From NCBI GenBank assembly GCA_964410825.1, contig CAYPIT010000001.1, positions 1 to 25,655 on the forward strand: a DNA stretch of 25,655 nucleotides. Direction: 5' to 3'. This document shows, piece after piece, positions 1 to 10,273 of the stretch (position 1 is its first letter; each line of letters starts with the position of its first letter). The notes below the pieces were generated by a model. That model made no database searches, was not told where the DNA came from, and saw nothing but the letters and a program-made list of their open reading frames with translations. Both the position numbers and the translations under genes were made by a program. Origin of the DNA: an uncultured Nitrospiraceae bacterium. Its GTDB lineage: Bacteria; Nitrospirota; Thermodesulfovibrionia; UBA6902.

Positions 1-1397
1 CCCGCTACGACAAGAAAGTCATATGTGTAATTATTCAAAGCATATCCGATTGAGAGTAAAACACCCGGCAAAAAAAGAATAAACCAGATCGGACCAAGCC
101 CGCCCAACCGTGAATCATACAGATAATATTGAACATTTTCGAGCCACACATAAAGAGGTCTCGTAATATACGACAATTTACTAATAATCTCGGGGGCAGG
201 CTCTACGATCCCTTTATACAGTCCCTCAAAAATAGTATTACCGAGAAAAGATATCTGCATCGGATATACCGGATTGTTATTTAGTGCCCAGTTTTTTAAG
301 TACCAGTAAGAACCTACCAGTAATAGAGGTGAGAGGAAATAAATAAAGAACATCTTCAGACTTTTTACAAGTTGGGAGTATGTGTCCTTATTGTCAGATT
401 TTAAAAAACTCCAGAGCTTTTTAGATTCCTGAACTACAAGAACAGAAGATACGATTCCCGCAAAAAGGGGGCCAGAACTCTTCGAGCCGAGCAGTATGCC
501 CGTTGACAGTCCGGCAAAAATGAGATAATACTTCCTCTGCTGAAGATGTTCAACTTCTCTTCTCATCTCACCGTTAGTCTCAAAGCTGTCTCTCATCAGG
601 AAATTAATTGCTATTAGAAACAAAACCGATATCGCGACATCAACATAGTTTGTTGTCGATTGCAGAATTATTATAGGTGTAAAGAAAAAAAGAAAAGAGG
701 AGTACAAAGCATATTTACTCTTTATTCCCACTTTTAAAGCTATGCTGTATATCGTTACAACACCAGTAAGGGTAAAAAAGAGCTGACTTAAATCTGTGAT
801 TACGTCATTCTGTAAAAAAATAATATTCCATAAAAAGAAAAGTTCGATGTTCTTTGGGAACATGTTAATCCACTGGTTAATAAAAGAATAATTTGGAACC
901 TCCTGTATAGCCCCGCTCTGCATGATATACCCTACAATCGGAAGGTGATACCACAGGGCGTCCCATGTATAGGAGGGAAACAGGTATCCAAGCATTATCA
1001 TCCAGCATGTCATCAATACCAGCAGACCAAACAAGCAGCATAATATAACGTCACCCTTTATCAATTTAAGTACATTGCCAATCTTATCTTTCCATTCATT
1101 GACGATTGAGGCAAAGAAAACCTGTTTATTTCCAGAATCAATTTTTTGCAAGCTGATAACTGTGATGATCAATATAACCGCTGATACAAATGTGTTCAGA
1201 GTGAACAGAGGGAAAACATAAAGTTTTTTAAAGGGAACACCAAGCAACAATGCTGATAATATTATCTGTGAAAGAGCCAGGACAGATGTTCCGATAATCC
1301 TGTCAACAAATGATATGAGCTTTCTTTTACGAAAGAGAAAGATATACCAGGAAGAAAATAAAAACAGGTTTACTATGATATAAGATAGGATATTCAA
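1..1397 (-). CDS. GT-C fold (PMT_2/ArnT-like) polytopic membrane glycosyltransferase, 3' end outside window
   Basis: Not in the ORF track because it runs off the edge. Read by hand: stop-free frame of 465 codons from TTG at 1397 to base 1. Many hydrophobic helices plus GT-C-type motifs: SYTWDALWYHLP (first-loop DxxxYH), NYVD, LLGSKSSG, WYLKNWALNNNPVYP. Confidence 0.75.
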   Translation of the reverse strand, partial: MNILSYIIVNLFLFSSWYIFLFRKRKLISFVDRIIGTSVLALSQIILSALLLGVPFKKLYVFPLFTLNTFVSAVILIITVISLQKIDSGNKQVFFASIVNEWKDKIGNVLKLIKGDVILCCLFGLLVLMTCWMIMLGYLFPSYTWDALWYHLPIVGYIMQSGAIQEVPNYSFINQWINMFPKNIELFFLWNIIFLQNDVITDLSQLFFTLTGVVTIYSIALKVGIKSKYALYSSFLFFFTPIIILQSTTNYVDVAISVLFLIAINFLMRDSFETNGEMRREVEHLQQRKYYLIFAGLSTGILLGSKSSGPLFAGIVSSVLVVQESKKLWSFLKSDNKDTYSQLVKSLKMFFIYFLSPLLLVGSYWYLKNWALNNNPVYPMQISFLGNTIFEGLYKGIVEPAPEIISKLSYITRPLYVWLENVQYYLYDSRLGGLGPIWFILFLPGVLLSIGYALNNYTYDFLVVA

Positions 1398-1993
1398 TCA
1401 ATCAAAACAGTTCCAGAATCGTCTGAAACTGCAGTCCGTCATTTGATGGTAATATTTATACTGCTCTTCTGCACGTTCCTTCATGCCAAGCTTTTCATAA
1501 ACCACAGCAATATCCCATAAAGCATATTTGTTAGAGGGATCAATTTCAAGCACCTGTTGATATTCTGATAATGCTGTTTTGAAAAGACCTTTCTCTTTAT
1601 ATATAAAACCGAGATCATAATGTGCAAATGCATTCTCCGGATTTATCTCTAATGCTTTACGGTACTGAACCAATGCTTTCTCATATTTTTTAGTTGCCCT
1701 ATATATATATCCCAGATCATAATTCGCATGAGGATGATCATGTTGCATCGTTAAGAGTTGTAAATATACACGCTCGGCTTTATCAAACAAACCCTTTCTT
1801 TTATATATTAATCCAAGTTGATAGTAAGAATATGCATCGTTAGCCTCGTAAAATGATTCAATTGCCTTATCTTCCAGTTGAATAGTCTGATATATAACTG
1901 CCAGAAGAGTATGGCGCTTAACGAAGATATAAAGAGATAGTATGATAATGGAAATACTTATCAGCAGGAATAGTATTTTTTTTTACTATTCAT
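1398..1993 (-). CDS. N-terminally membrane-anchored TPR protein (about 4 TPRs), out of frame at an A9 tract near its start
   Basis: The track ORF 1398..1790 holds TPRs (YDLGYIYRATKKYEKALVQYRKALEINPEN, etc.). The same frame stays open back to 1982 (KKILFLLISISIIILSLYIFVKRH...AYSYYQLGLIYKRKG) with no start codon. The ATG at 1993 (MNSKKK) joins it only if the A9 run (plus-strand T 1976-1984) is A10 or A7. Confidence 0.75.
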
Positions 1994-2068
1994 TTTACAG
2001 GATAAAAAATAGAGCAACAAAATATCTGGAAAAAGTTTTAATAATTTTCAAATTAAGTTTTTTTAGGT

Positions 2069-3052
2069 TTAGTGGATGTATACCATCGCCAGGCTAAATG
2101 TCTCGCCAAGTGCAAAATCCTCGGTCTTAAATTCTCCAAATCCAGGCAGTTCAGTGTTATAGGAAAGAACAACCTGCCATTTAGGGGCAACATTAAATGC
2201 CAGATCAATACCTGCGCTCAAGGCGTTCGGTTCCAGTACCAATGAATCTTTTATGATGACAATATCTTGCTGCCAGGACGCTCCGCCTCCGCCCCCATTA
2301 AATAATGTTTGAAGCTCTGGCGAAACTTTCGCATTTCCAACCGAATGTGTCCAGTCTACAAGCCCTCTTATAGACAGCCATGATGTGACAGAATACCCAC
2401 CGCCAAATGAAATTTTAATCTGGTCAGACGGTGTAAAATGATTGTTGTCGAGCTGGTCATTTTCAAACCTGAATTTATAACCCGTATCTAGCCATGCATA
2501 TCCTTTACCAAGACCCCGGCCAAATTTTAGTTTTAGTGTAGCGTCATACTGACCATCGCCCAAACTTAAATGCGTCACAGGACTCTCATAATCATATGCT
2601 TCAGGTATCTTCACCTCACCCTGAATAGACATTAGAACACCAGAACCCAGAATGTTGCCGATAAGGCTGTGCCTCAGACCGAGATTTATATCACCAACTC
2701 CACTCGGGCCTTGCTCAACTCCATATCTAATGTTATCATTAGATTTTTGCCAGTCCCATCCTATTCCGGTAAATATTGTGAGTTTATCGGTGATTCCGTA
2801 CTCCCCGTAATATGTAATTTTCGTGGACTGAAATTCTTCTGTATCAATTCTGTGTACAGGGGCCTTTAAACCAACAACCGCACCTGATGAATCTGTATCT
2901 AATGTAGTAAACTTTTGCGTAGTGTGGTAATTACTAAGGGTCAATTGATTATAGGAATGCCCCTTTGGCTGTGTCCAGGCTGAAAAAACATCATTTGATA
3001 TGAATAAACTCCCTGCTGATAAAATAGCTATAACCAAGAATCTTTTTACCAT
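2069..3052 (-). CDS. Exported hypothetical protein, probable outer-membrane beta-barrel
   Basis: Likely start is ATG 3052 (MVKRFLVIAIL), 7 nt after AGGAG. Signal-peptide-like N-terminus ending before AWTQPKG. Alternating hydrophobic/aromatic amphipathic strands throughout (e.g. YAWLDTGYKFR, WQVVLSYNTE, TFSLAMVYIH). Confidence 0.6.
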   Translation of the reverse strand: MVKRFLVIAILSAGSLFISNDVFSAWTQPKGHSYNQLTLSNYHTTQKFTTLDTDSSGAVVGLKAPVHRIDTEEFQSTKITYYGEYGITDKLTIFTGIGWDWQKSNDNIRYGVEQGPSGVGDINLGLRHSLIGNILGSGVLMSIQGEVKIPEAYDYESPVTHLSLGDGQYDATLKLKFGRGLGKGYAWLDTGYKFRFENDQLDNNHFTPSDQIKISFGGGYSVTSWLSIRGLVDWTHSVGNAKVSPELQTLFNGGGGGASWQQDIVIIKDSLVLEPNALSAGIDLAFNVAPKWQVVLSYNTELPGFGEFKTEDFALGETFSLAMVYIH

Positions 3053-3114
3053 CTTGCAACTCCTTTTGTTACCATGATTTATTATATAAATATTGATTTC
3101 CTGCATTATGCCGG

Positions 3115-4635
3115 CTATGCGGCAATTACATCTTCAGTATTTCTCTTGGATATAAAGATACGAGCAATGCGACTTGATGCTAAACTACTTAATATTACTT
3201 GAAAAAGTGACAAAAAAGCAATATAAAAAAATCCGACCTGAAAAATCATAAGAAAAGGGATCGAAACATAAATCTTATTAATAAAAGCAAAATAGATATT
3301 AAAAGTAAAATATACTCCAAGCAAAAATTCTATTATTACTGAAAGGTTTATTTTTACTCTGTATTTTTTCCCAAGCCATCTGTCATTTTTCTTCTCGATC
3401 ATATACTTAGGGGTACGTTTAAATTCTGTTTGGCTGTTAAACAGCGCTCCCAGTACCGCCTTTGAGTTATTAACAGAAAGTCCTATACCAATTGACATCA
3501 ACATCGGCAAATAGATCAACCTTGATTTCCAGTTACTGTATGCTTCTTTCTGTGAGCACAGATAAAAAAATGATATCCCCACAGTTGCAACCAGCAGGAA
3601 TGGTACGTCAGTCACTATCATCTGAAACCATCCAATGTTTATACGGGCAATCATTGACGGGTATATCAGAATCGAAAGCAGCAGCATAAGCAGATATGAA
3701 ACATTGTTGGTCAGATGAAAAAAGGCCTCCACTTTTACCTTCAAAGGCAGATCGCTTTTTAGAATTTGAGGAAGCAGTTTTTTTGCGGTCTGTATGGATC
3801 CCTTTGCCCATCTATGCTGCTGGCTTTTAAATCCATTAATTTCTACAGGAATTTCTGAAGGGGCAACTTCATCCTTTAAAAATATAAAGTTCCATCCCTT
3901 TAACTGTGACCTGTAACTCAAATCCAGATCTTCCGTAAGTGTATCATTCTGCCAGCCACCCGCAGTTTCGATAGCTTCCTTTCTCCAAATACCGGCAGTG
4001 CCATTAAAATTAAAAAATCGCCCTGACCAGTTTCTGGCTGCATGTTCCATGATAAAATGACCATCAAGCATAATCGCCTGTATTTTTGTTATCAACGAGT
4101 ATTTTCTGTTCAAATAAGTCCATCTCGTCTGAACCATGCCTATTGATTTATCCGCAAAATAATGGATCGTATTATTTAAGATATCTCTTTGCGGGACAAA
4201 ATCTGCGTCAAAAACCGCTATGAACTCACCCTTAGCTACTTTCAATCCGTCTGACAACGCTCCACCCTTAAACCCTTCCCTCTTAACGCGGTGGATGTGA
4301 TTTATGTCAAATCCTTTTTCTTTAAACTCTCCAACACACTTTTTTGCAACATTGACCGTATTATCCGTAGAGTCATCCAGCACCTGGATGTCAAGGAGTT
4401 CTCTGGGGTAATCAATATTGCAGGATGCTGTTATTAAGCGCCTCACTACATACATTTCATTGTAGAGTGGAAGTTGAATGGTTATGCGGGGCAGTTCAGA
4501 TAATCTTTTTCCAAGCTTCGGTTTGTTCCTGCGGTGCTTATAGTAGAGATAAACCATATAATACCGGTGTGAAGCGTAGATGAAGACCGCTATCAAGATA
4601 CAGAAATATACTATCAAAAAAAGATAAAGCAGCAT
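3115..4635 (-). CDS. Processive GT2 glycosyltransferase (cellulose synthase-like/CslA-like), membrane bound
   Basis: D, DxD, TED and QxxRW motifs: LDDSTD, FKGGAL, FDADF, TLTEDLDLS, QQHRWAKG. One N-terminal and several C-terminal TM helices. No room for a PilZ domain. Confidence 0.9.
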   Translation of the reverse strand: MLLYLFLIVYFCILIAVFIYASHRYYMVYLYYKHRRNKPKLGKRLSELPRITIQLPLYNEMYVVRRLITASCNIDYPRELLDIQVLDDSTDNTVNVAKKCVGEFKEKGFDINHIHRVKREGFKGGALSDGLKVAKGEFIAVFDADFVPQRDILNNTIHYFADKSIGMVQTRWTYLNRKYSLITKIQAIMLDGHFIMEHAARNWSGRFFNFNGTAGIWRKEAIETAGGWQNDTLTEDLDLSYRSQLKGWNFIFLKDEVAPSEIPVEINGFKSQQHRWAKGSIQTAKKLLPQILKSDLPLKVKVEAFFHLTNNVSYLLMLLLSILIYPSMIARINIGWFQMIVTDVPFLLVATVGISFFYLCSQKEAYSNWKSRLIYLPMLMSIGIGLSVNNSKAVLGALFNSQTEFKRTPKYMIEKKNDRWLGKKYRVKINLSVIIEFLLGVYFTFNIYFAFINKIYVSIPFLMIFQVGFFYIAFLSLFQVILSSLASSRIARIFISKRNTEDVIAA

Positions 4636-4802
4636 TAATGTACCCTTTGTTATTAAAAAGGACTCATAAAATTGAGGACTTCAAATCATGGAATTATAAC
4701 ATACTATCTGATATTGAAACAATTAGAAATTTTTTGTAGTAGACCAATTATAGAAATCAGACAGTTATATGCTGCAGATATAAATTCTGTACCCAATAGA
4801 CC

Positions 4803-4838
4803 TTGATATTGAATAAGAATTAATTATATAATTATAAT
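4803..4838 (+). promoter_or_regulatory. Candidate sigma70 promoter(s) for the ArsR gene overlapped by an AT-rich palindrome (possible operator)
   Basis: TTGATA(4803)-18-TATAAT(4827) and TTGAAT(4809)-18-TATAAT(4833). Perfect palindrome TAATTATATAATTA at 4821-4834. The low complexity weakens the call. Confidence 0.4.
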
Positions 4839-4876
4839 TAAGCTTTAATTTTTAAAAATAGCTCTGTTTAACAATA

Positions 4877-5194
4877 ATGAACGATTCCGCTCCAAATCAC
4901 CAGTCAAATTGGACAAACATACTTAAAGCGCTCGCTGATGAAAGCCGCCTGAAGATAATACACGAGCTTCTAAAAAAGGAATTGTCAGTACAGGACTTAT
5001 CGGATATTCTCGGCATAAAAATATATAACATGTCGAGACATCTTAAAGTTCTCGAGGCAACCGGGCTGGTTCAAAAAAGGAAAGATGGTGTTCAGAGATT
5101 TTACGATATCACCAATGATTTCAAGTCTCGATTTTCGGACGACAACCAAGTGTTGGATTTGGGGTGTTGCAAGTTTATATTTGAGGATCTGTAA
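4877..5194 (+). CDS. ArsR/SmtB family transcriptional repressor with C-terminal Cys-Cys
   Basis: LKALADESRLKII...ELSVQDLSDILG...NMSRHLKVLEATGLV...RKDG..RFY is the ArsR winged HTH. The only cysteines are C97-C98 in LDLGCC. Confidence 0.92.
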   Translation: MNDSAPNHQSNWTNILKALADESRLKIIHELLKKELSVQDLSDILGIKIYNMSRHLKVLEATGLVQKRKDGVQRFYDITNDFKSRFSDDNQVLDLGCCKFIFEDL

Positions 5195-5242
5195 AAGTAA
5201 ACATTTTTGATACTTTGCATCCTCCCCGCGCCTCAAAATATT

Positions 5243-5593
5243 TTATTCTTCATCAACCGGAAGGCCATATGCTGTCCATTCATCAATTCCACCTTCATAA
5301 ACCTTAACGTTTTTAATATTCAGTGATTGCAAACCAACAGCAACCTTCTTGGAAGCCTTGCAGTCCCTATGCTTACAATATATGATGATTTCGTCAAACA
5401 ATATTAAGTCTCTTCTTTTGTCGATTACCTCAGGATATGGAATTGTTTTCGCCCCTTTAATTTTTGATCTATTCCCATCATATTTGCCAATTGTATCAAC
5501 CAGCACAAAATTGGACTTTCCATTAATTCGGTTTAATAGCTCATCTTTATCTACACATTCTAAAGTTGTATTGAAATCTATTTTATAGGACAT
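5243..5593 (-). CDS. Single-domain rhodanese-like sulfurtransferase
   Basis: LVD...IKGAKTIP...IIIYCKHRDCKAS...VKVYEGGIDEW...GLPV matches the rhodanese fold with an active-site Cys. Strong RBS AAGGAGG upstream. Confidence 0.9.
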   Translation of the reverse strand: MSYKIDFNTTLECVDKDELLNRINGKSNFVLVDTIGKYDGNRSKIKGAKTIPYPEVIDKRRDLILFDEIIIYCKHRDCKASKKVAVGLQSLNIKNVKVYEGGIDEWTAYGLPVDEE

Positions 5594-5731: not shown

Positions 5732-8700
5732 ATGGCAAAACAGTCCAAAAGATTCGCAATGTTAGTCAACATTGACAGATGTGTTGGATGCTATGCGTGC
5801 CAGGTATCCTGCAAAGCAGAATATAATATCCCATTCGGGACCTTTCGATGCAAAGTTGAAACATATCATTCAGGCATCTACCCTCATAATAATAAGTTTT
5901 TTTTGCCTCGTCTTTGTAACCACTGCGAAAATGCTCCCTGTATAGAATCATGTGATGAAACAGCCTTGTTTAAAAATGATGACGGTATAGTTTTACTTGA
6001 TCACGATAAATGTACAGGCTGTCAGCAATGCTATGACAAATGCCCATATAATGCAATCGATATAAGACCGATCACTGGACAAGTTGAAAAATGCGACTTC
6101 TGTTACAGCAGAAGACTACTGAAAGGGCTTTTACCGGTATGTGTGCAGAGCTGTATGGGAAAGGCTATTACATTCGGCGATATAAATGACCCAAAGAGTG
6201 AGATAGTCTCCGTACTTGAACATTGCGATATCAAAGTCCTTAATCCTGAACTTAATGCTAATCCTTCTGTTTTTTATGTCTATAAAAGTGATTCATTGAA
6301 CTCCCCATTAAGAGATCACAAAATTACAATTAAAAGTTCAACTAAAAGTGCATCGACAGAACCGGCTGTCTCGCTTAATGAAGACTCTGCAAAAATTATA
6401 TATTCATCCTGTGCAATGTGTCCATCAGAATGCGGTATAGCAGTGGCAGTAGAAAACGGTTTTGCAAAAAAAATATATGGAAACCCTCACTCTTTAATAA
6501 ATAACGGAACATTATGCGCTAAGGGTGCCTCAGGGTTACAGCTTACTTACTCACCTTACAGAATCAAAACCCCTTTAATGAGGATCGGCAAGCGAGGTGA
6601 GGACAGATGGAAAGAAATAACCTGGGATGAGGCTTCCAAGCATATTGCTGTCAAGTTAATTGAAATTAAGAAAGCGCATGGCCCGGAATCTGTCTTCCTG
6701 AACTGCGGCGACGTTACTGACAGAGAAGCATATTACAGACTGTTTCATGCCTTTGGCACCCCAAATACATTTGATCATGGGAGTATCTGTGATCCCAATC
6801 GCAGATGGGGTCACGGTATTATGACTGGAGATGAAAGACCGCTACCTGATATACAGAGACCTTGTCTGTTAAGAAATAGTGAAGGAGAAATTCACTTGTA
6901 CAAAAACCATGATATCAAGCTTCTTCTGAACATCGGGGTTAATCCGCTCGTTGCAGCAAGATTCAATTACATGTCCAGTGGCATACCTGGAGCCAGAGAG
7001 GAAAATAAATGTAAATACATAGTCATTGATCCGTCCTTTACAAATTCTGCATCTCATGCGGATATCTGGCTTCCAATAAAACCTGGAACAGATGCCGCTC
7101 TGCTTGCATCCATGCTTTATCATATTATCTGTAATGATTCTCCGGATAATGCATCTCAAGGTTATATAGATCATGATTTTCTCAGAGATTATACGACTGG
7201 CTGGCAGGAATTCAAAGGCGCGTTTCTTTCGTATACTGACAAAAAAGACCCTTCGAATGAATTTAATTTTTTCACACCTGAGTGGGCAGAAAATATAACC
7301 GGGATTTCCGCTAATAATATAAAAAATATATCTCACCTGTTTGGCATAACAAAGCCTGCCGCTATCGAAATTGGAATGCACGGCACTGCCCACCACAGCA
7401 ACGGTGATGTCACATCAATACTCATGACAACCCTCTGCCTCATAACAGGTAACATGGATATTCCTGGAGGTTTGGTTTTTATAGACTCCCAAAAGGCAAA
7501 AAAAGGGGATTTCGTTGCAGGGAAGAAATTCCTCGAGAAAGTGACTAACAAAAAAGTAAACGGCTCAGATATACAAGGGAAACATTCAGAATTGCATAAA
7601 GACCTGTATGGTGATTTTCCGGCAGCATGGAGAGGCGTATTGGCTGATCTTCCCATGAAAATCAGAAAAGGGATTACGTTGAAACATGGCCCATTTAAAA
7701 ATTATAAATATCCGGTCAGGGCATTTATATCGAGAGCAGGCAATCCTGTCATGACAGCCGGAAACAGCCACGACTGGGTTAATGCGGTTACGGCCATGGA
7801 TAAAAACGGTGAATATACTCTCGATTTGATGGTCTTTATCGATACTCATATAACAGAGACCGGCAAATATGCGGATATAGTTCTTCCGGAGGCTGGTTAT
7901 TTAGAGCGAATCGGACTTAGTGATGTGTATACAATGAGTCCTGAAATAGCCATAAGAGACCAGGTTATCAAACCGCTTCATGGATCAAAAACCCCATTTG
8001 AAATAATGACCGTACTGGCTAATGCTCTTGTCAACAATGGTGACTCTGATATCAGACCTGAAGATTTCGAAAAATATATAAACGAAGAAGAGTTTATCAA
8101 TGACCTACTTAGAGAATCACCCGGATTTTATAATATCGGTTCACCACTTCCATATCCCGACCTTCCTGAAGGATGTTTAATAACAGGCATACCGGACAAT
8201 ACAACAGCAACCTGGGGTAACACAATTATAAAGAAAGGAGAACCTTTGACTGTTGATTGGCTGCGGAAAAATAACGGGGTAGCGGTCTGGCCTTCAAGTT
8301 ATTACCGTTACAAAAAAAAGGATGGTTCGCCATCCGGTGTTTATCCTAAAACCGGGTCAAAGAAGTTTGAATTTAAGTTCGGTTACCTTGCAAAAATCAA
8401 CTCACGCCTGGGGACAAATTTCCCTTCTACCTTCTATTGGTCAGAATCCAAATGGAGCCATGGAAACGAATCATTTAATGACGCTGTCAAAGAATATCCT
8501 TTTCAACTTATTAGCGGCAGAGCTCATTATGCAATGACTATGACCGGAATCTGCCCATACCTTGCAGAGACTAACACAGAATGTATGCAGCCATTAAACA
8601 ATGAATTTCAGCATATTGTACCGGAAGTTAAAAACATTCCTGAAGAATACGGGATTTCGGCGGGTAAGATTACATTCAAGTCAGGAACTGTTTCAATTCC

Positions 8701-9007
8701 TGTGCTTGCACTTAATAAAACGGATGGTGATCATCTGAATTTAAAGACAGGAGACATTATTATTCTCGAAAACCCTTTGAAAAACAGAATGCAGGGCAAG
8801 GTCTTTTTAACCGAAGATGTAATGCCGGGAGTTATAAAAACCGCCTTTGGGCCTGGGGGTCAAAAGGCGTCCGGTGCAGGTTTGTTAAATCATACTTCAT
8901 TTTATACACAAAATATTAACAGGCTCTTCAACACCAAAAACCTTTCCCCTTTTACCGGGATGCCGGGATTCGGAGACATTATAGTAAAGATTATTAAACA
9001 CAACTAA
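5732..9007 (+). CDS. Fused 4x[4Fe-4S] electron-transfer domain + Mo/W-bisPGD oxidoreductase catalytic domain (Psr/Phs/Soe-like clade of the DMSO reductase family)
   Basis: Residues about 1-184: CVGCYACQVSC, LCNHCENAPCIESC, CTGCQQCYDKC, KCDFC...CVQSC (PsrB/NrfC/DmsB type). Then a Ser/Thr/Lys linker, SCAMCPSECG...LCAKG (FS0 cluster), GTPNTFDHGSIC (putative Cys353 Mo ligand), IDPSFTNSASHADIWLPIKPGTD, ADIVLPEAGYLER and C-terminal YPFQLISGR. No twin-arginine leader. Confidence 0.9.
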   Translation: MAKQSKRFAMLVNIDRCVGCYACQVSCKAEYNIPFGTFRCKVETYHSGIYPHNNKFFLPRLCNHCENAPCIESCDETALFKNDDGIVLLDHDKCTGCQQCYDKCPYNAIDIRPITGQVEKCDFCYSRRLLKGLLPVCVQSCMGKAITFGDINDPKSEIVSVLEHCDIKVLNPELNANPSVFYVYKSDSLNSPLRDHKITIKSSTKSASTEPAVSLNEDSAKIIYSSCAMCPSECGIAVAVENGFAKKIYGNPHSLINNGTLCAKGASGLQLTYSPYRIKTPLMRIGKRGEDRWKEITWDEASKHIAVKLIEIKKAHGPESVFLNCGDVTDREAYYRLFHAFGTPNTFDHGSICDPNRRWGHGIMTGDERPLPDIQRPCLLRNSEGEIHLYKNHDIKLLLNIGVNPLVAARFNYMSSGIPGAREENKCKYIVIDPSFTNSASHADIWLPIKPGTDAALLASMLYHIICNDSPDNASQGYIDHDFLRDYTTGWQEFKGAFLSYTDKKDPSNEFNFFTPEWAENITGISANNIKNISHLFGITKPAAIEIGMHGTAHHSNGDVTSILMTTLCLITGNMDIPGGLVFIDSQKAKKGDFVAGKKFLEKVTNKKVNGSDIQGKHSELHKDLYGDFPAAWRGVLADLPMKIRKGITLKHGPFKNYKYPVRAFISRAGNPVMTAGNSHDWVNAVTAMDKNGEYTLDLMVFIDTHITETGKYADIVLPEAGYLERIGLSDVYTMSPEIAIRDQVIKPLHGSKTPFEIMTVLANALVNNGDSDIRPEDFEKYINEEEFINDLLRESPGFYNIGSPLPYPDLPEGCLITGIPDNTTATWGNTIIKKGEPLTVDWLRKNNGVAVWPSSYYRYKKKDGSPSGVYPKTGSKKFEFKFGYLAKINSRLGTNFPSTFYWSESKWSHGNESFNDAVKEYPFQLISGRAHYAMTMTGICPYLAETNTECMQPLNNEFQHIVPEVKNIPEEYGISAGKITFKSGTVSIPVLALNKTDGDHLNLKTGDIIILENPLKNRMQGKVFLTEDVMPGVIKTAFGPGGQKASGAGLLNHTSFYTQNINRLFNTKNLSPFTGMPGFGDIIVKIIKHN

Positions 9008-9082
9008 ATACCGCCATCTCCCATGGCAGATTCCAGCTTTCGGTATTTACCTTGAAAAAACTCAGTTTTATTGCTAAATTAA

Positions 9083-9120
9083 CCCTCATCAGTAATAGAG
9101 AGATGAAGGGATATTTTTTC
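9083..9120 (+). terminator. Possible intrinsic terminator between the Mo-enzyme gene and pheA
   Basis: CCCTCATC / GATG(A)AGGG stem with one bulge, followed by ATATTTTTTC. Confidence 0.35.
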
Positions 9121-9196
9121 TAACTATATGCATCGTTGATCCCGGATTCCTGAAACTGTTTTATATCATATTTGCTTTGCAGATCATAAGAGTAAA

Positions 9197-10273
9197 ATGA
9201 AAAAAACTTCTGAATTGCAGAAACTCCGATCTAAAATCGACAAGATCGACCTGAAGATAGTTGAACTGCTAAATGAGAGGGCACAGATAGTCCTGGAAGT
9301 GGGCAGGGCTAAACAGAGCAACCGGCTGAAGATTCATTCCCAGGTAAGAGAAAAAGCGATATTGCGCAAACTTCAGGAGAGTAATACAGGACCTTTCCCT
9401 AATGAAGCACTGAAACTGATTTATGAAGAAATCCTGTCAGCTTCGGTCGCTCTCCAGCAACCTTTAAAGATTGCCTATCTGGGACCGTCTGCAACCTTCA
9501 CACATTTTGCAGCGAGACGAAAATTCGGGTCATCTTCGGAGTACCTGCCGGAAAGCACGATAAAAGAAGTTTTTGAGGCGGTTTTCAGGAACAAGGTAAA
9601 TTACGGAGTAGTGCCTATCGAAAACTCTACAGAAGGTGTAGTCAACTACACTCTCGATATGTTTATGGATTCAGATTTAATGATCTCATCCGAAATTGTG
9701 CTTGAAATATCGCATAACTTACTGTCAAAGTTGGGGCAAAAAGCAAGTGTCCGGAAAATTTACTCACATCCTCAGGCAAAGGCGCAGTGTCGAAGCTGGC
9801 TCGAGAGAAATTTTCCGGGTGTGCAGATTATTGATGAGATCAGTACAGCTGCCGCCGCAAAGCGCGCATCAAGGTCTCCTGATTCTGCGGCTGTCGCCAG
9901 TGAATTGGCGGCCTCCGTATACGGCCTGAAGATTATTGAAAAAAGCATCGAAGACAACAAGAAAAACGTTACAAGATTTATGGTAATTGCAAAGGAATCA
10001 CCTGGCAAAACAGGAAAAGATAAGACATCAATAATGTTCACCATTAAAGACAAGCCCGGTGCGCTGTTCTTGATTTTACGTCCCTTTTCAAGGCATAAAA
10101 TAAATCTTACAAAAATCGAGTCAAGACCTTCAAAAAGAAAGGCATGGGAATATATGTTCTTTGTGGATATGGAAGGGCATATTGATGATAAAAACGTCAT
10201 GAAGGCGATAAAGGATGTTCAAAAGGAGTGCCTGTTTTTTAAAGTGCTCGGTTCATACCCTTCGGCAGAATAA
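9197..10273 (+). CDS. pheA: Bifunctional chorismate mutase/prephenate dehydratase (P-protein) with ACT domain
   Basis: LRSKIDKIDLKIVELLNERA (CM type II), IAYLGPSATFT, VPIENSTEG, NVTRFMVI, NLTKIESRP, WEYMFFVD. Confidence 0.97.
   Translation: MKKTSELQKLRSKIDKIDLKIVELLNERAQIVLEVGRAKQSNRLKIHSQVREKAILRKLQESNTGPFPNEALKLIYEEILSASVALQQPLKIAYLGPSATFTHFAARRKFGSSSEYLPESTIKEVFEAVFRNKVNYGVVPIENSTEGVVNYTLDMFMDSDLMISSEIVLEISHNLLSKLGQKASVRKIYSHPQAKAQCRSWLERNFPGVQIIDEISTAAAAKRASRSPDSAAVASELAASVYGLKIIEKSIEDNKKNVTRFMVIAKESPGKTGKDKTSIMFTIKDKPGALFLILRPFSRHKINLTKIESRPSKRKAWEYMFFVDMEGHIDDKNVMKAIKDVQKECLFFKVLGSYPSAE

Follow-up and report, generated by a model that had tools for sequence, protein, structure and literature searches.

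A probable cell-surface glycan gene cluster with a candidate recoding site, conserved in uncultured Nitrospirota

Gene content of the locus

We examined a 25,655-nucleotide (nt) stretch of DNA from an uncultured Nitrospiraceae bacterium (Nitrospirota; Thermodesulfovibrionia; UBA6902), which corresponds to positions 1 to 25,655 of contig CAYPIT010000001.1 in assembly GCA_964410825.1 and is referred to here as the window. The minus strand of positions 1-4635 encodes, in this order, a membrane glycosyltransferase of family 2 (GT2), an outer-membrane beta-barrel, a tetratricopeptide repeat (TPR) protein and the N-terminal part of a polytopic protein with the fold of the GT-C class of glycosyltransferases. 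These genes are co-oriented and closely spaced, with successive intergenic gaps of 62, 75 and 0 nt, as had been described in an earlier interpretation of the letters and translations (the sequence-only reading). The cluster is conserved in uncultured Nitrospirota and probably builds a cell-surface sugar structure.

The first gene (3115-4635, minus strand) encodes an inner-membrane protein of 506 amino acids (aa) that matches Pfam GT2 families and contains no additional domain; a Pfam domain search detected no PilZ domain in it. The best NCBIfam matches (CelA and PgaC) are partial and score far under the cut-off, and the closest relatives of solved structure are BcsA chains (profile E-value 7e-37). 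We identified the motifs DDS87, DAD143, TED234, QQHRW272 and FKRTPK405, and the first four of these, which represent the D, DxD, TED and Q(Q/R)xRW signatures of a GT-A domain, are invariant across the family alignment. Hydrophobic helices are located at approximately residues 1-19, 312-330, 339-357, 434-452 and 457-475, i.e., one in the N-terminal region and at least four in the C-terminal region. A profile of the C-terminal half aligns the invariant F405-x-R-T-P-K410 to FkLTSK of barley CslF6 (8dqk) and to FtVTSK of cotton CesA7 (7d5k), which is the FxVTxK gating loop. Judged by its complete motif set and gating loop, the protein is a genuine membrane enzyme of the cellulose-synthase superfamily. 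The motifs, helices and Pfam search agree with its previous description as a QxxRW-type GT2 with multiple transmembrane (TM) helices and without PilZ. It presumably also resembles the plant CslA and CslC proteins. Relatives share 73-93% identity inside the clade and 50-59% across phyla, and looking up the names of representative relatives returned nothing informative. An exact look-up of the window GT2 matched no contig.

The second gene (2069-3052, minus strand; a longer open reading frame, or ORF, extends to 3106) encodes a Sec-exported protein of 327 aa with a signal peptide. Its mature N-terminus is conserved (AWTQPKGHSYNQ) and includes an AWTQPKG segment that is also present in distant homologues. 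An AlphaFold model based on 40 relatives shows a barrel of 12 strands (predicted local distance difference test, pLDDT, 82.6; predicted template-modelling score, pTM, 0.78). The top Foldseek match is the COG4313 channel Pput2725 (4rl8; E-value 2.7e-12, template-modelling score 0.79), followed by chains of FapF (0.62-0.76), and both of these proteins are 12-stranded. Sequence identity to the solved structures is 12-15%. The window protein has no match to PF13557, but a relative that shares 54% identity with it reaches 26.8 bits, which is above the cut-off of 22. Taken together, the model, the fold matches and the score of this relative therefore indicate a genuine outer-membrane barrel, as expected from the earlier description of a strand-rich exported protein. 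Judged by its fold, the barrel is of the COG4313/FapF class and is not an exopolysaccharide (EPS) porin of the 16-18-strand type known from the Bcs, Pga, Alg and Pel systems. The fold is shared with Pput2725 and FapF, but the context is not, as the window barrel is surrounded by glycan genes and the known proteins are linked to aromatic degradation or amyloid secretion. In one related locus on a 930-kb contig (L147), a frameshift splits the barrel gene into two ORFs (8588-9449); the gene is either a pseudogene or affected by a homopolymer error of long-read sequencing.

The last of the four genes opens with a TTG at 1397 and leaves the window after 465 aa (1-1397, minus strand) out of a predicted total of ~674 aa. 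We found no Pfam, NCBIfam or PDB sequence match for this protein, with PDB searched by profile as well. Its relatives, about 276 in number, are all unnamed, and those that carry an organism label are nearly all from Nitrospirota. For structure prediction we used a full-length relative with 85% identity and an alignment of 36 sequences (pTM 0.82). The 11 best PDB fold matches to this model are all GT-C proteins, namely DPY19, AglB/STT3, ArnT (template-modelling score 0.54) and Pmt1/2/4; later matches are noise. The model includes three additional N-terminal helices ahead of the canonical first TM helix. GT-C enzymes carry a catalytic acid in the first extracytoplasmic loop, after a TM helix. 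In the family described here, an invariant W145-D146...Y150-H151-P153 follows helix 117-139 (D146 is encoded at 962..960), where it may correspond to this acid; the local pLDDT is <50. The fold matches support the assignment of a polytopic protein with the GT-C_A fold, in line with the GT-C glycosyltransferase predicted earlier. At the sequence level, the candidate is a new family that falls outside the described GT-C families (PMT, PMT_2, STT3, ArnT, YfhO and others). One related locus (L096, 8869-13152) contains two tandem copies of the GT-C-like gene.

Conservation of the cluster

Related loci were retrieved by barrel similarity from a metagenome scan and contig look-ups, resulting in 56 non-identical loci (here, related loci in general are numbered with the prefix L). 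The GT2 gene is directly upstream of the barrel gene, on the same strand and 30-140 nt away, in 45 of 47 evaluable loci. The TPR gene lies downstream of the barrel gene in 34 of 37 evaluable loci and a GT-C-like gene follows in 26 of 28, frequencies at which the arrangement is not attributable to chance. Occurrence of the barrel, TPR and GT-C-like genes appears to be restricted to Nitrospirota, where the order GT2>barrel>TPR>GT-C is nearly invariant, and the records of several relatives carry the label Thermodesulfovibrionia. The idea of the four genes as a set thus held up in the gene-neighbourhood survey, which found them co-conserved within one clade. Upstream flanks vary, with an ArsR regulator, a rhodanese and a molybdenum oxidoreductase in some loci and a TIGR04282 protein (“arsenosugar biosynthesis glycosyltransferase”) in others. 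The differing flanks indicate that general synteny alone does not explain the cohesion of the core.

The exceptions to the core order (L119 and L121) involve a paralogue of the barrel. In L121 (4387-9060), the paralogue shares 48% identity with the window barrel and is found without the GT2, TPR or GT-C genes. Its neighbours there encode a Wzy_C (O-antigen-ligase-like) protein of 763 aa that ends in TPRs, a carbamoyltransferase, a lipoprotein with a LamG domain and an SxtJ-like protein. The location of a barrel paralogue beside a TPR-bearing polytopic glycan enzyme (Wzy_C-TPR) would count in favor of a glycan-related function for the window cluster.

We used the relatives as a proxy for the genes to the left of the window. 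Beyond the GT-C-like gene they encode a ~50-aa single-TM protein and then a 230-aa GT2 that lacks TM helices. Both genes are found in many loci, among them L087, which has a barrel with 88% identity to that in the window; after the GT-C-like gene, the small GT2 is encoded in 10-12 loci and the ~50-aa TM protein in at least 15. Examples of the pair are located at 3473-4412 in L087, 13540-14445 in L003 and 12419-13268 in L147. The best matches to the small GT2 are AglJ, dolichyl-phosphate hexose transferase and PpgS. Synthases for a lipid-phosphate-sugar donor commonly accompany GT-C enzymes. Given a GT2 that resembles polyprenyl-phosphate-hexose synthases next to the GT-C gene, the GT-C protein would have a donor module of its own. 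The term “minimal”, previously applied to the system, is therefore inappropriate, as the relatives hold two additional genes, including that for this GT2.

Stand-alone PilZ genes occur near the cluster in two relatives only, at differing positions (4686-5444, minus strand, in L087; 2676-3713 in L144). The L087 gene, which encodes a PilZ-CBM48 protein, was considered as a component of the cluster and dropped because it is not conserved elsewhere.

A candidate recoding site in the TPR gene

The third gene (1398-1993, minus strand) encodes a TPR protein with one N-terminal TM helix, at least four TPR units and a conserved C-terminal TDCSFRRFWNCFD. The TM helix serves as an anchor and there is no lipobox, in agreement with the membrane-anchored TPR protein of the sequence-only reading, which had missed a break in the frame of the gene. 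The ATG at 1993 reads MNSKKK, and its frame ends after 10 codons. The long TPR ORF, shifted by -1 relative to this frame, lacks a start codon ahead of the TM helix. Overlap between the two frames is on an A9 tract, nine consecutive A's (1976-1984 on the minus strand, T9 on the plus strand). One extra A, or a -1 slip on this run, yields a protein that begins with MNSKKKILFLL... and is ~198 aa long.

The same -1 layout, in which (A/G)TG is followed by 5-6 nt and by A9 or A10, occurs in ~24 non-redundant related loci from many studies, and an out-of-frame TPR gene is found in about two-thirds of the related loci. TPR proteins from the out-of-frame loci are only ~50% identical, and one of these loci is in a 2.7-Mb single-contig genome record. 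Every out-of-frame locus has 9-10 A's. In contrast, relatives with an in-frame gene mostly have six to eight A's or a broken run (AAAAAGAG), with a single case of an in-frame A9. These in-frame relatives encode the N-terminus M-x-x-K-K-TM, which is what the slippage product would have. One related locus requires the opposite shift. Further out-of-frame sites are located at 12793-12811 in L001, at 10935-10953 in L003, at about 11055-11075 in L145 and in ~20 more loci. In public records, gene callers shorten the TPR protein to 136-203 aa by choosing internal starts.

A frame break could also mean that the TPR gene is a pseudogene or was mis-sequenced, so that the shift has no function. The ATG and the ORF are indeed out of frame in the window, and the long-read-like relative L147 has a broken barrel gene as well. 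We consider this explanation very improbable, given that the -1 layout with A9 or A10 recurs across studies and assemblers and that the frame with the TM helix and the TPRs is open and conserved. Moreover, the A9 tract is the only A/T run of at least nine nt in the 25.6-kb window, and most of the 36 such runs (A9 or T9 and longer) in 349 kb of related loci are at the TPR site. In three independent assemblies of related strains, the length of the run is constant and there is no indel.

In many bacterial genomes, selection against slippage-prone A/T runs is evident from nine nt upward, and such runs are put to use in, for example, Thermus dnaX and Shigella mxiE (PMC1088944). In the cluster described here, a slippage-prone run of at least nine A/T nt lies between out-of-frame ORFs and is conserved across lineages. 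The layout is thus a candidate for programmed transcriptional slippage or programmed -1 frameshifting. Seven A's are sufficient for a ribosomal slip, yet the out-of-frame loci never have fewer than nine, which favors slippage by RNA polymerase. The 9-10 A run is shared with known slippage genes (Thermus thermophilus dnaX, Shigella mxiE and insertion sequence elements), and in mxiE, too, the longer functional product requires one non-templated nucleotide (PMC1088944). Unlike in those genes, the candidate site is three codons past the start of a gene for a periplasmic TPR protein, and it would gate a downstream glycosyltransferase as well. We found no description of a conserved recoding site in such a TPR gene, although the literature was not searched for the recoding site specifically.

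The link to the glycosyltransferase is suggested by the end of the TPR gene. In the window, the stop codon is followed without a gap by the start of the GT-C gene (TGA-TTG, 1395-1400, minus strand). A stop codon directly followed by a TTG or GTG start is found in 20 of the 31 loci listed, one duplicate pair included, with TAA as the stop in 16 of them and TGA in 4. Given this junction, synthesis of the GT-C protein is probably coupled to translation of the TPR gene, and hence to the slip. The coupling would probably operate by termination-reinitiation, and the A-run would then gate both proteins. We also considered a fusion of the TPR and GT-C proteins by selenocysteine insertion or read-through. 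It was excluded based on the nature of the junction, as the stop is TAA in most cases and a TTG or GTG follows.

The final 15 codons of the TPR gene (1401-1445, minus strand) are nearly invariant (H-x-M-T-D-C-S-F-R-R-F-W-N-C-F/L-D), synonymous sites included, although the proteins of the loci compared are only ~50% identical. The two Cys residues suggest a disulfide loop in the periplasm. An RNA hairpin over the TDCSFRRFWNC codons is not supported; the predicted stem has only -4.8 kcal/mol, and compensatory changes are absent from it.

Proposed function and alternative explanations

We propose, with a probability of roughly 0.4, that the four window genes open an envelope-glycan cluster of six genes in which a polymer made by the GT2 is decorated and exported. 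Two modules would be involved. In the first, the GT2 would use a nucleotide sugar to make a beta-linked glycan, which would pass through the TM channel of the enzyme itself, and the 12-stranded barrel would bring the product into the outer membrane or through it. The second would consist of the TPR protein, the GT-C protein, the ~50-aa TM protein and the TM-less GT2. Here, the small GT2 would load a hexose onto polyprenyl phosphate, and the GT-C protein would move this hexose to an acceptor at the periplasmic face. Holding the acceptor would be the task of the TPR protein with its membrane anchor; the acceptor may be the product of the first GT2 or another envelope molecule. Output of the second module would be throttled in that translation from the TPR ATG ends at 10 codons unless the mRNA gains an A or the ribosome slips by -1. 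The GT-C protein, starting from a weak TTG right after the TPR stop codon, would be made only when the TPR gene is translated.

The cluster shares several features with synthase-dependent EPS systems (BcsA/B/C for cellulose, PgaABCD for PNAG, Alg8/44/K/E for alginate, and PelB-G). These are a GT2 with TED, QxxRW and a gating loop, a gene for an outer-membrane barrel directly downstream, and a TPR protein encoded in the cluster. On the other hand, the window synthase has neither PilZ nor any other cyclic di-GMP (c-di-GMP) module, the 12-stranded barrel is of a class other than that of the 16-18-strand porins, and synthases of the window type occur alone in other phyla. The TPR protein also differs, in that it is small, located in the inner membrane and apparently coupled to the GT-C protein, and it is neither fused to a barrel nor an outer-membrane lipoprotein. 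These properties argue against an export scaffold of AlgK/BcsC type. By analogy with TPR-fused GT-C or Wzy_C proteins, the TPR protein looks like an acceptor-binding partner of the GT-C enzyme.

Other similarities are with systems in which a GT-C enzyme uses a lipid-phosphate sugar (ArnC/ArnT; GtrA/B/C; CsbB/GtcA/YfhO; Ppm1 and the mycobacterial GT-C enzymes; eukaryotic DPM1-3 with PMT/TMTC). The GT-C_A fold is common to both, and in the relatives of the window the small GT2, close to polyprenyl- and dolichyl-phosphate hexose synthases, occurs with a tiny TM protein. A TPR module accompanies the GT-C enzyme in TMTC, and TPR-fused polytopic glycan enzymes of bacteria, such as that in L121, are likewise comparable. 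In contrast to these systems, the window GT-C protein has no detectable sequence similarity to known GT-C families and has three extra N-terminal helices. In addition, its TPR partner is separate and apparently translationally coupled, and its expression would be gated by the candidate recoding site.

A number of observations weigh against our proposal. Outside the clade, we surveyed the 80 best full-length GT2 matches listed (50-59% identity), which include Acidobacteriota, Myxococcota, Verrucomicrobiota, Latescibacterota and others. The GT2 homologue stands alone in all 80 of these loci, with housekeeping neighbours and, within 8 kb, no barrel or GT-C-like gene; no cyanobacterial loci are among them. 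A 73%-identical GT2 in L146 also occurs without the module and is followed by radical-SAM genes. The co-inheritance of synthase and exporter seen in 45 of 47 loci in the clade is thus absent from these 80 loci and from L146, and therefore the GT2 needs neither the barrel nor the GT-C protein. To our knowledge, there is no precedent for a 12-stranded COG4313-type barrel in synthase-dependent systems, and such barrels are associated with hydrophobic substrates and not with polymers. Neither the window nor its conserved neighbours encode a periplasmic hydrolase, lyase, deacetylase or epimerase, the polymer-modifying enzymes of EPS systems. QxxRW and TED motifs occur in lipid glycosyltransferases too, and so the motifs alone do not separate these from polymer synthases. 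Terminator-like hairpins are found between the barrel and TPR genes in some relatives, so that each module may be transcribed separately. A search for RNA runs containing the window or L124 found none. Finally, the A9 run was read from assembled contigs, for which homopolymer miscalls are formally possible.

An alternative explanation is a lipoglycan pathway. In this case, the GT2 is a non-processive, MgdA-like hexosyl-diacylglycerol synthase, the GT-C protein extends the flipped glycolipid in the periplasm with hexose from polyprenyl-phosphate-hexose, and the barrel sets the product in the outer membrane. One source (nr) names an 82%-identical homologue of the GT2 “beta-monoglucosyldiacylglycerol synthase” (MGlcDG synthase), and cyanobacterial MgdA (Sll1377), an enzyme of this function, is a membrane GT2 of ~500 aa. 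Given this name, the window GT2 may be a glycolipid synthase, which the sequence-only reading had listed as a case against its proposal, but the transfer of the name was automatic. The genes for MGlcDG synthases do belong to family GT2 (PMC3276260). The GT2 is unusually conserved and sits alone among housekeeping genes elsewhere, as might a core membrane-lipid enzyme, and yet it retains the gating loop and TM region of the cellulose-synthase type. As for the barrel, the COG4313 family of its top fold match is implicated in the uptake of hydrophobic molecules (PMC4493636). Known GT-C enzymes often use lipid-anchored acceptors, and ArnT is among the fold matches. B12-radical-SAM genes with partial matches to lipid-related families adjoin the cluster or the GT2 gene in L001, L145 and L146. 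We know of no barrel, TPR or GT-C partners of MgdA, nor of an earlier example of a glycolipid synthase with an outer-membrane barrel as its partner.

Some GT2 family members that are 43-50% identical to the window protein are fusions with extracytoplasmic FG-GAP/beta-propeller domains or with a second GT2 domain. Such fusions are expected of polysaccharide enzymes and lean slightly towards polysaccharide work, against the lipoglycan pathway. Among the fused proteins, P0364, P0402, P0419, P0433, P0474 and P0502 have a C-terminal FG-GAP/beta-propeller, N-terminal leucine-rich repeats or a second GT2. Overall, we regard the lipoglycan pathway as possible but doubtful; the product of the GT2 may be either a polymer or a glycolipid.

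Alternatively, the GT2 and the other genes may be unrelated neighbours. The GT2 would have a housekeeping role of its own, and the genes for the barrel, the TPR protein, the GT-C protein, the small TM protein and the small GT2 would form an inserted, self-contained module for periplasmic glycosylation. The latter would be a TMTC/PMT-like protein glycosylation system or an ArnT-like system acting on lipid A or lipopolysaccharide, with the barrel as its target or partner. The isolated GT2 genes in L146 and in the loci from other phyla would be expected in this case, and the radical-SAM genes that follow the GT2 in L146 are also those next to the module in L001 and L145, a pattern that would fit its insertion. 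The TPR/GT-C module described above has its own predicted donor synthase, its TPR gene is apparently coupled to the GT-C gene and not to the barrel gene, and the terminator-like hairpins of some loci come after the barrel gene. However, the GT2 and barrel genes remain adjacent on one strand in nearly all loci despite their differing upstream flanks, and a barrel with TPR and GT-C genes was never seen without the GT2. Overall, we consider functionally independent neighbours unlikely.

Returning to the decorated and exported polymer, the sequence-only reading had proposed a synthase-dependent exporter, and this proposal is partly supported. Its GT2, its barrel, its GT-C fold and the co-conservation of the genes are retained here; the class of the barrel, the role of the TPR protein, the minimal gene set and the stand-alone GT2 genes elsewhere do not fit it. 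A more specific version can be put forward tentatively, and we regard it as doubtful in its entirety. In this version, the cluster is a Nitrospirota-specific assembly system for an outer-membrane glycan or lipoglycan that combines the cellulose-synthase-like GT2, a 12-stranded export barrel and a GT-C protein that would found a new family and have its TPR partner as a separate polypeptide. Its periplasmic half would be gated by programmed transcriptional slippage on the A9-A10 tract, and termination-reinitiation would extend this gating to the GT-C gene.

Neighbouring genes

Divergent from the cluster and upstream of it, the window encodes an ArsR/SmtB-family regulator (4877-5194, plus strand; NF033788, 78 bits, above the cut-off), which is followed by a rhodanese (5243-5593, minus strand) and a 1091-aa fused 4Fe-4S/molybdopterin oxidoreductase (5732-9007, plus strand). 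Of 30 related loci, 16 have an ArsR/SmtB-family regulator in this divergent upstream position, and the neighbourhood of regulator, rhodanese and oxidoreductase is kept in 10-16 of the 30. The tie between the regulator and the glycan cluster is unproven, and we treat this gene as candidate context only. In L146, a radical-SAM/SPASM-ArsM-like fusion is encoded after the GT2. The arsenic-related neighbours, namely the ArsR regulator, the TIGR04282 transferase and this fusion, are not tied to the cluster. The remainder of the window encodes core metabolism and is uninformative regarding cluster function.

In one related locus (L124), the spacer between the barrel and TPR genes contains a ~55-nt segment (3029-3083) whose assembly depth in four metagenomes is 30-900 times that of its surroundings. 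As its flanks are many and varied, the segment probably represents a small dispersed repeat.

Significance

The system is a variation on known kinds, and what appears new is the GT-C family and the conserved recoding site. If our proposal is correct, the cluster would represent a new architecture for making and exporting a surface glycan in diderm bacteria, with a small 12-stranded barrel, no c-di-GMP module and decoration by a GT-C enzyme that is supplied by its own lipid-sugar synthase. The GT-C proteins would be a new sequence family that lacks a Pfam model and is so far found only in this uncultured clade. The recoding site would dose two envelope proteins together. The stand-alone GT2 family is widespread, in Acidobacteriota, Myxococcota, Verrucomicrobiota and Latescibacterota among others, and is uncharacterised outside cyanobacteria. 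Thus, identification of the GT2 product would annotate thousands of genes.

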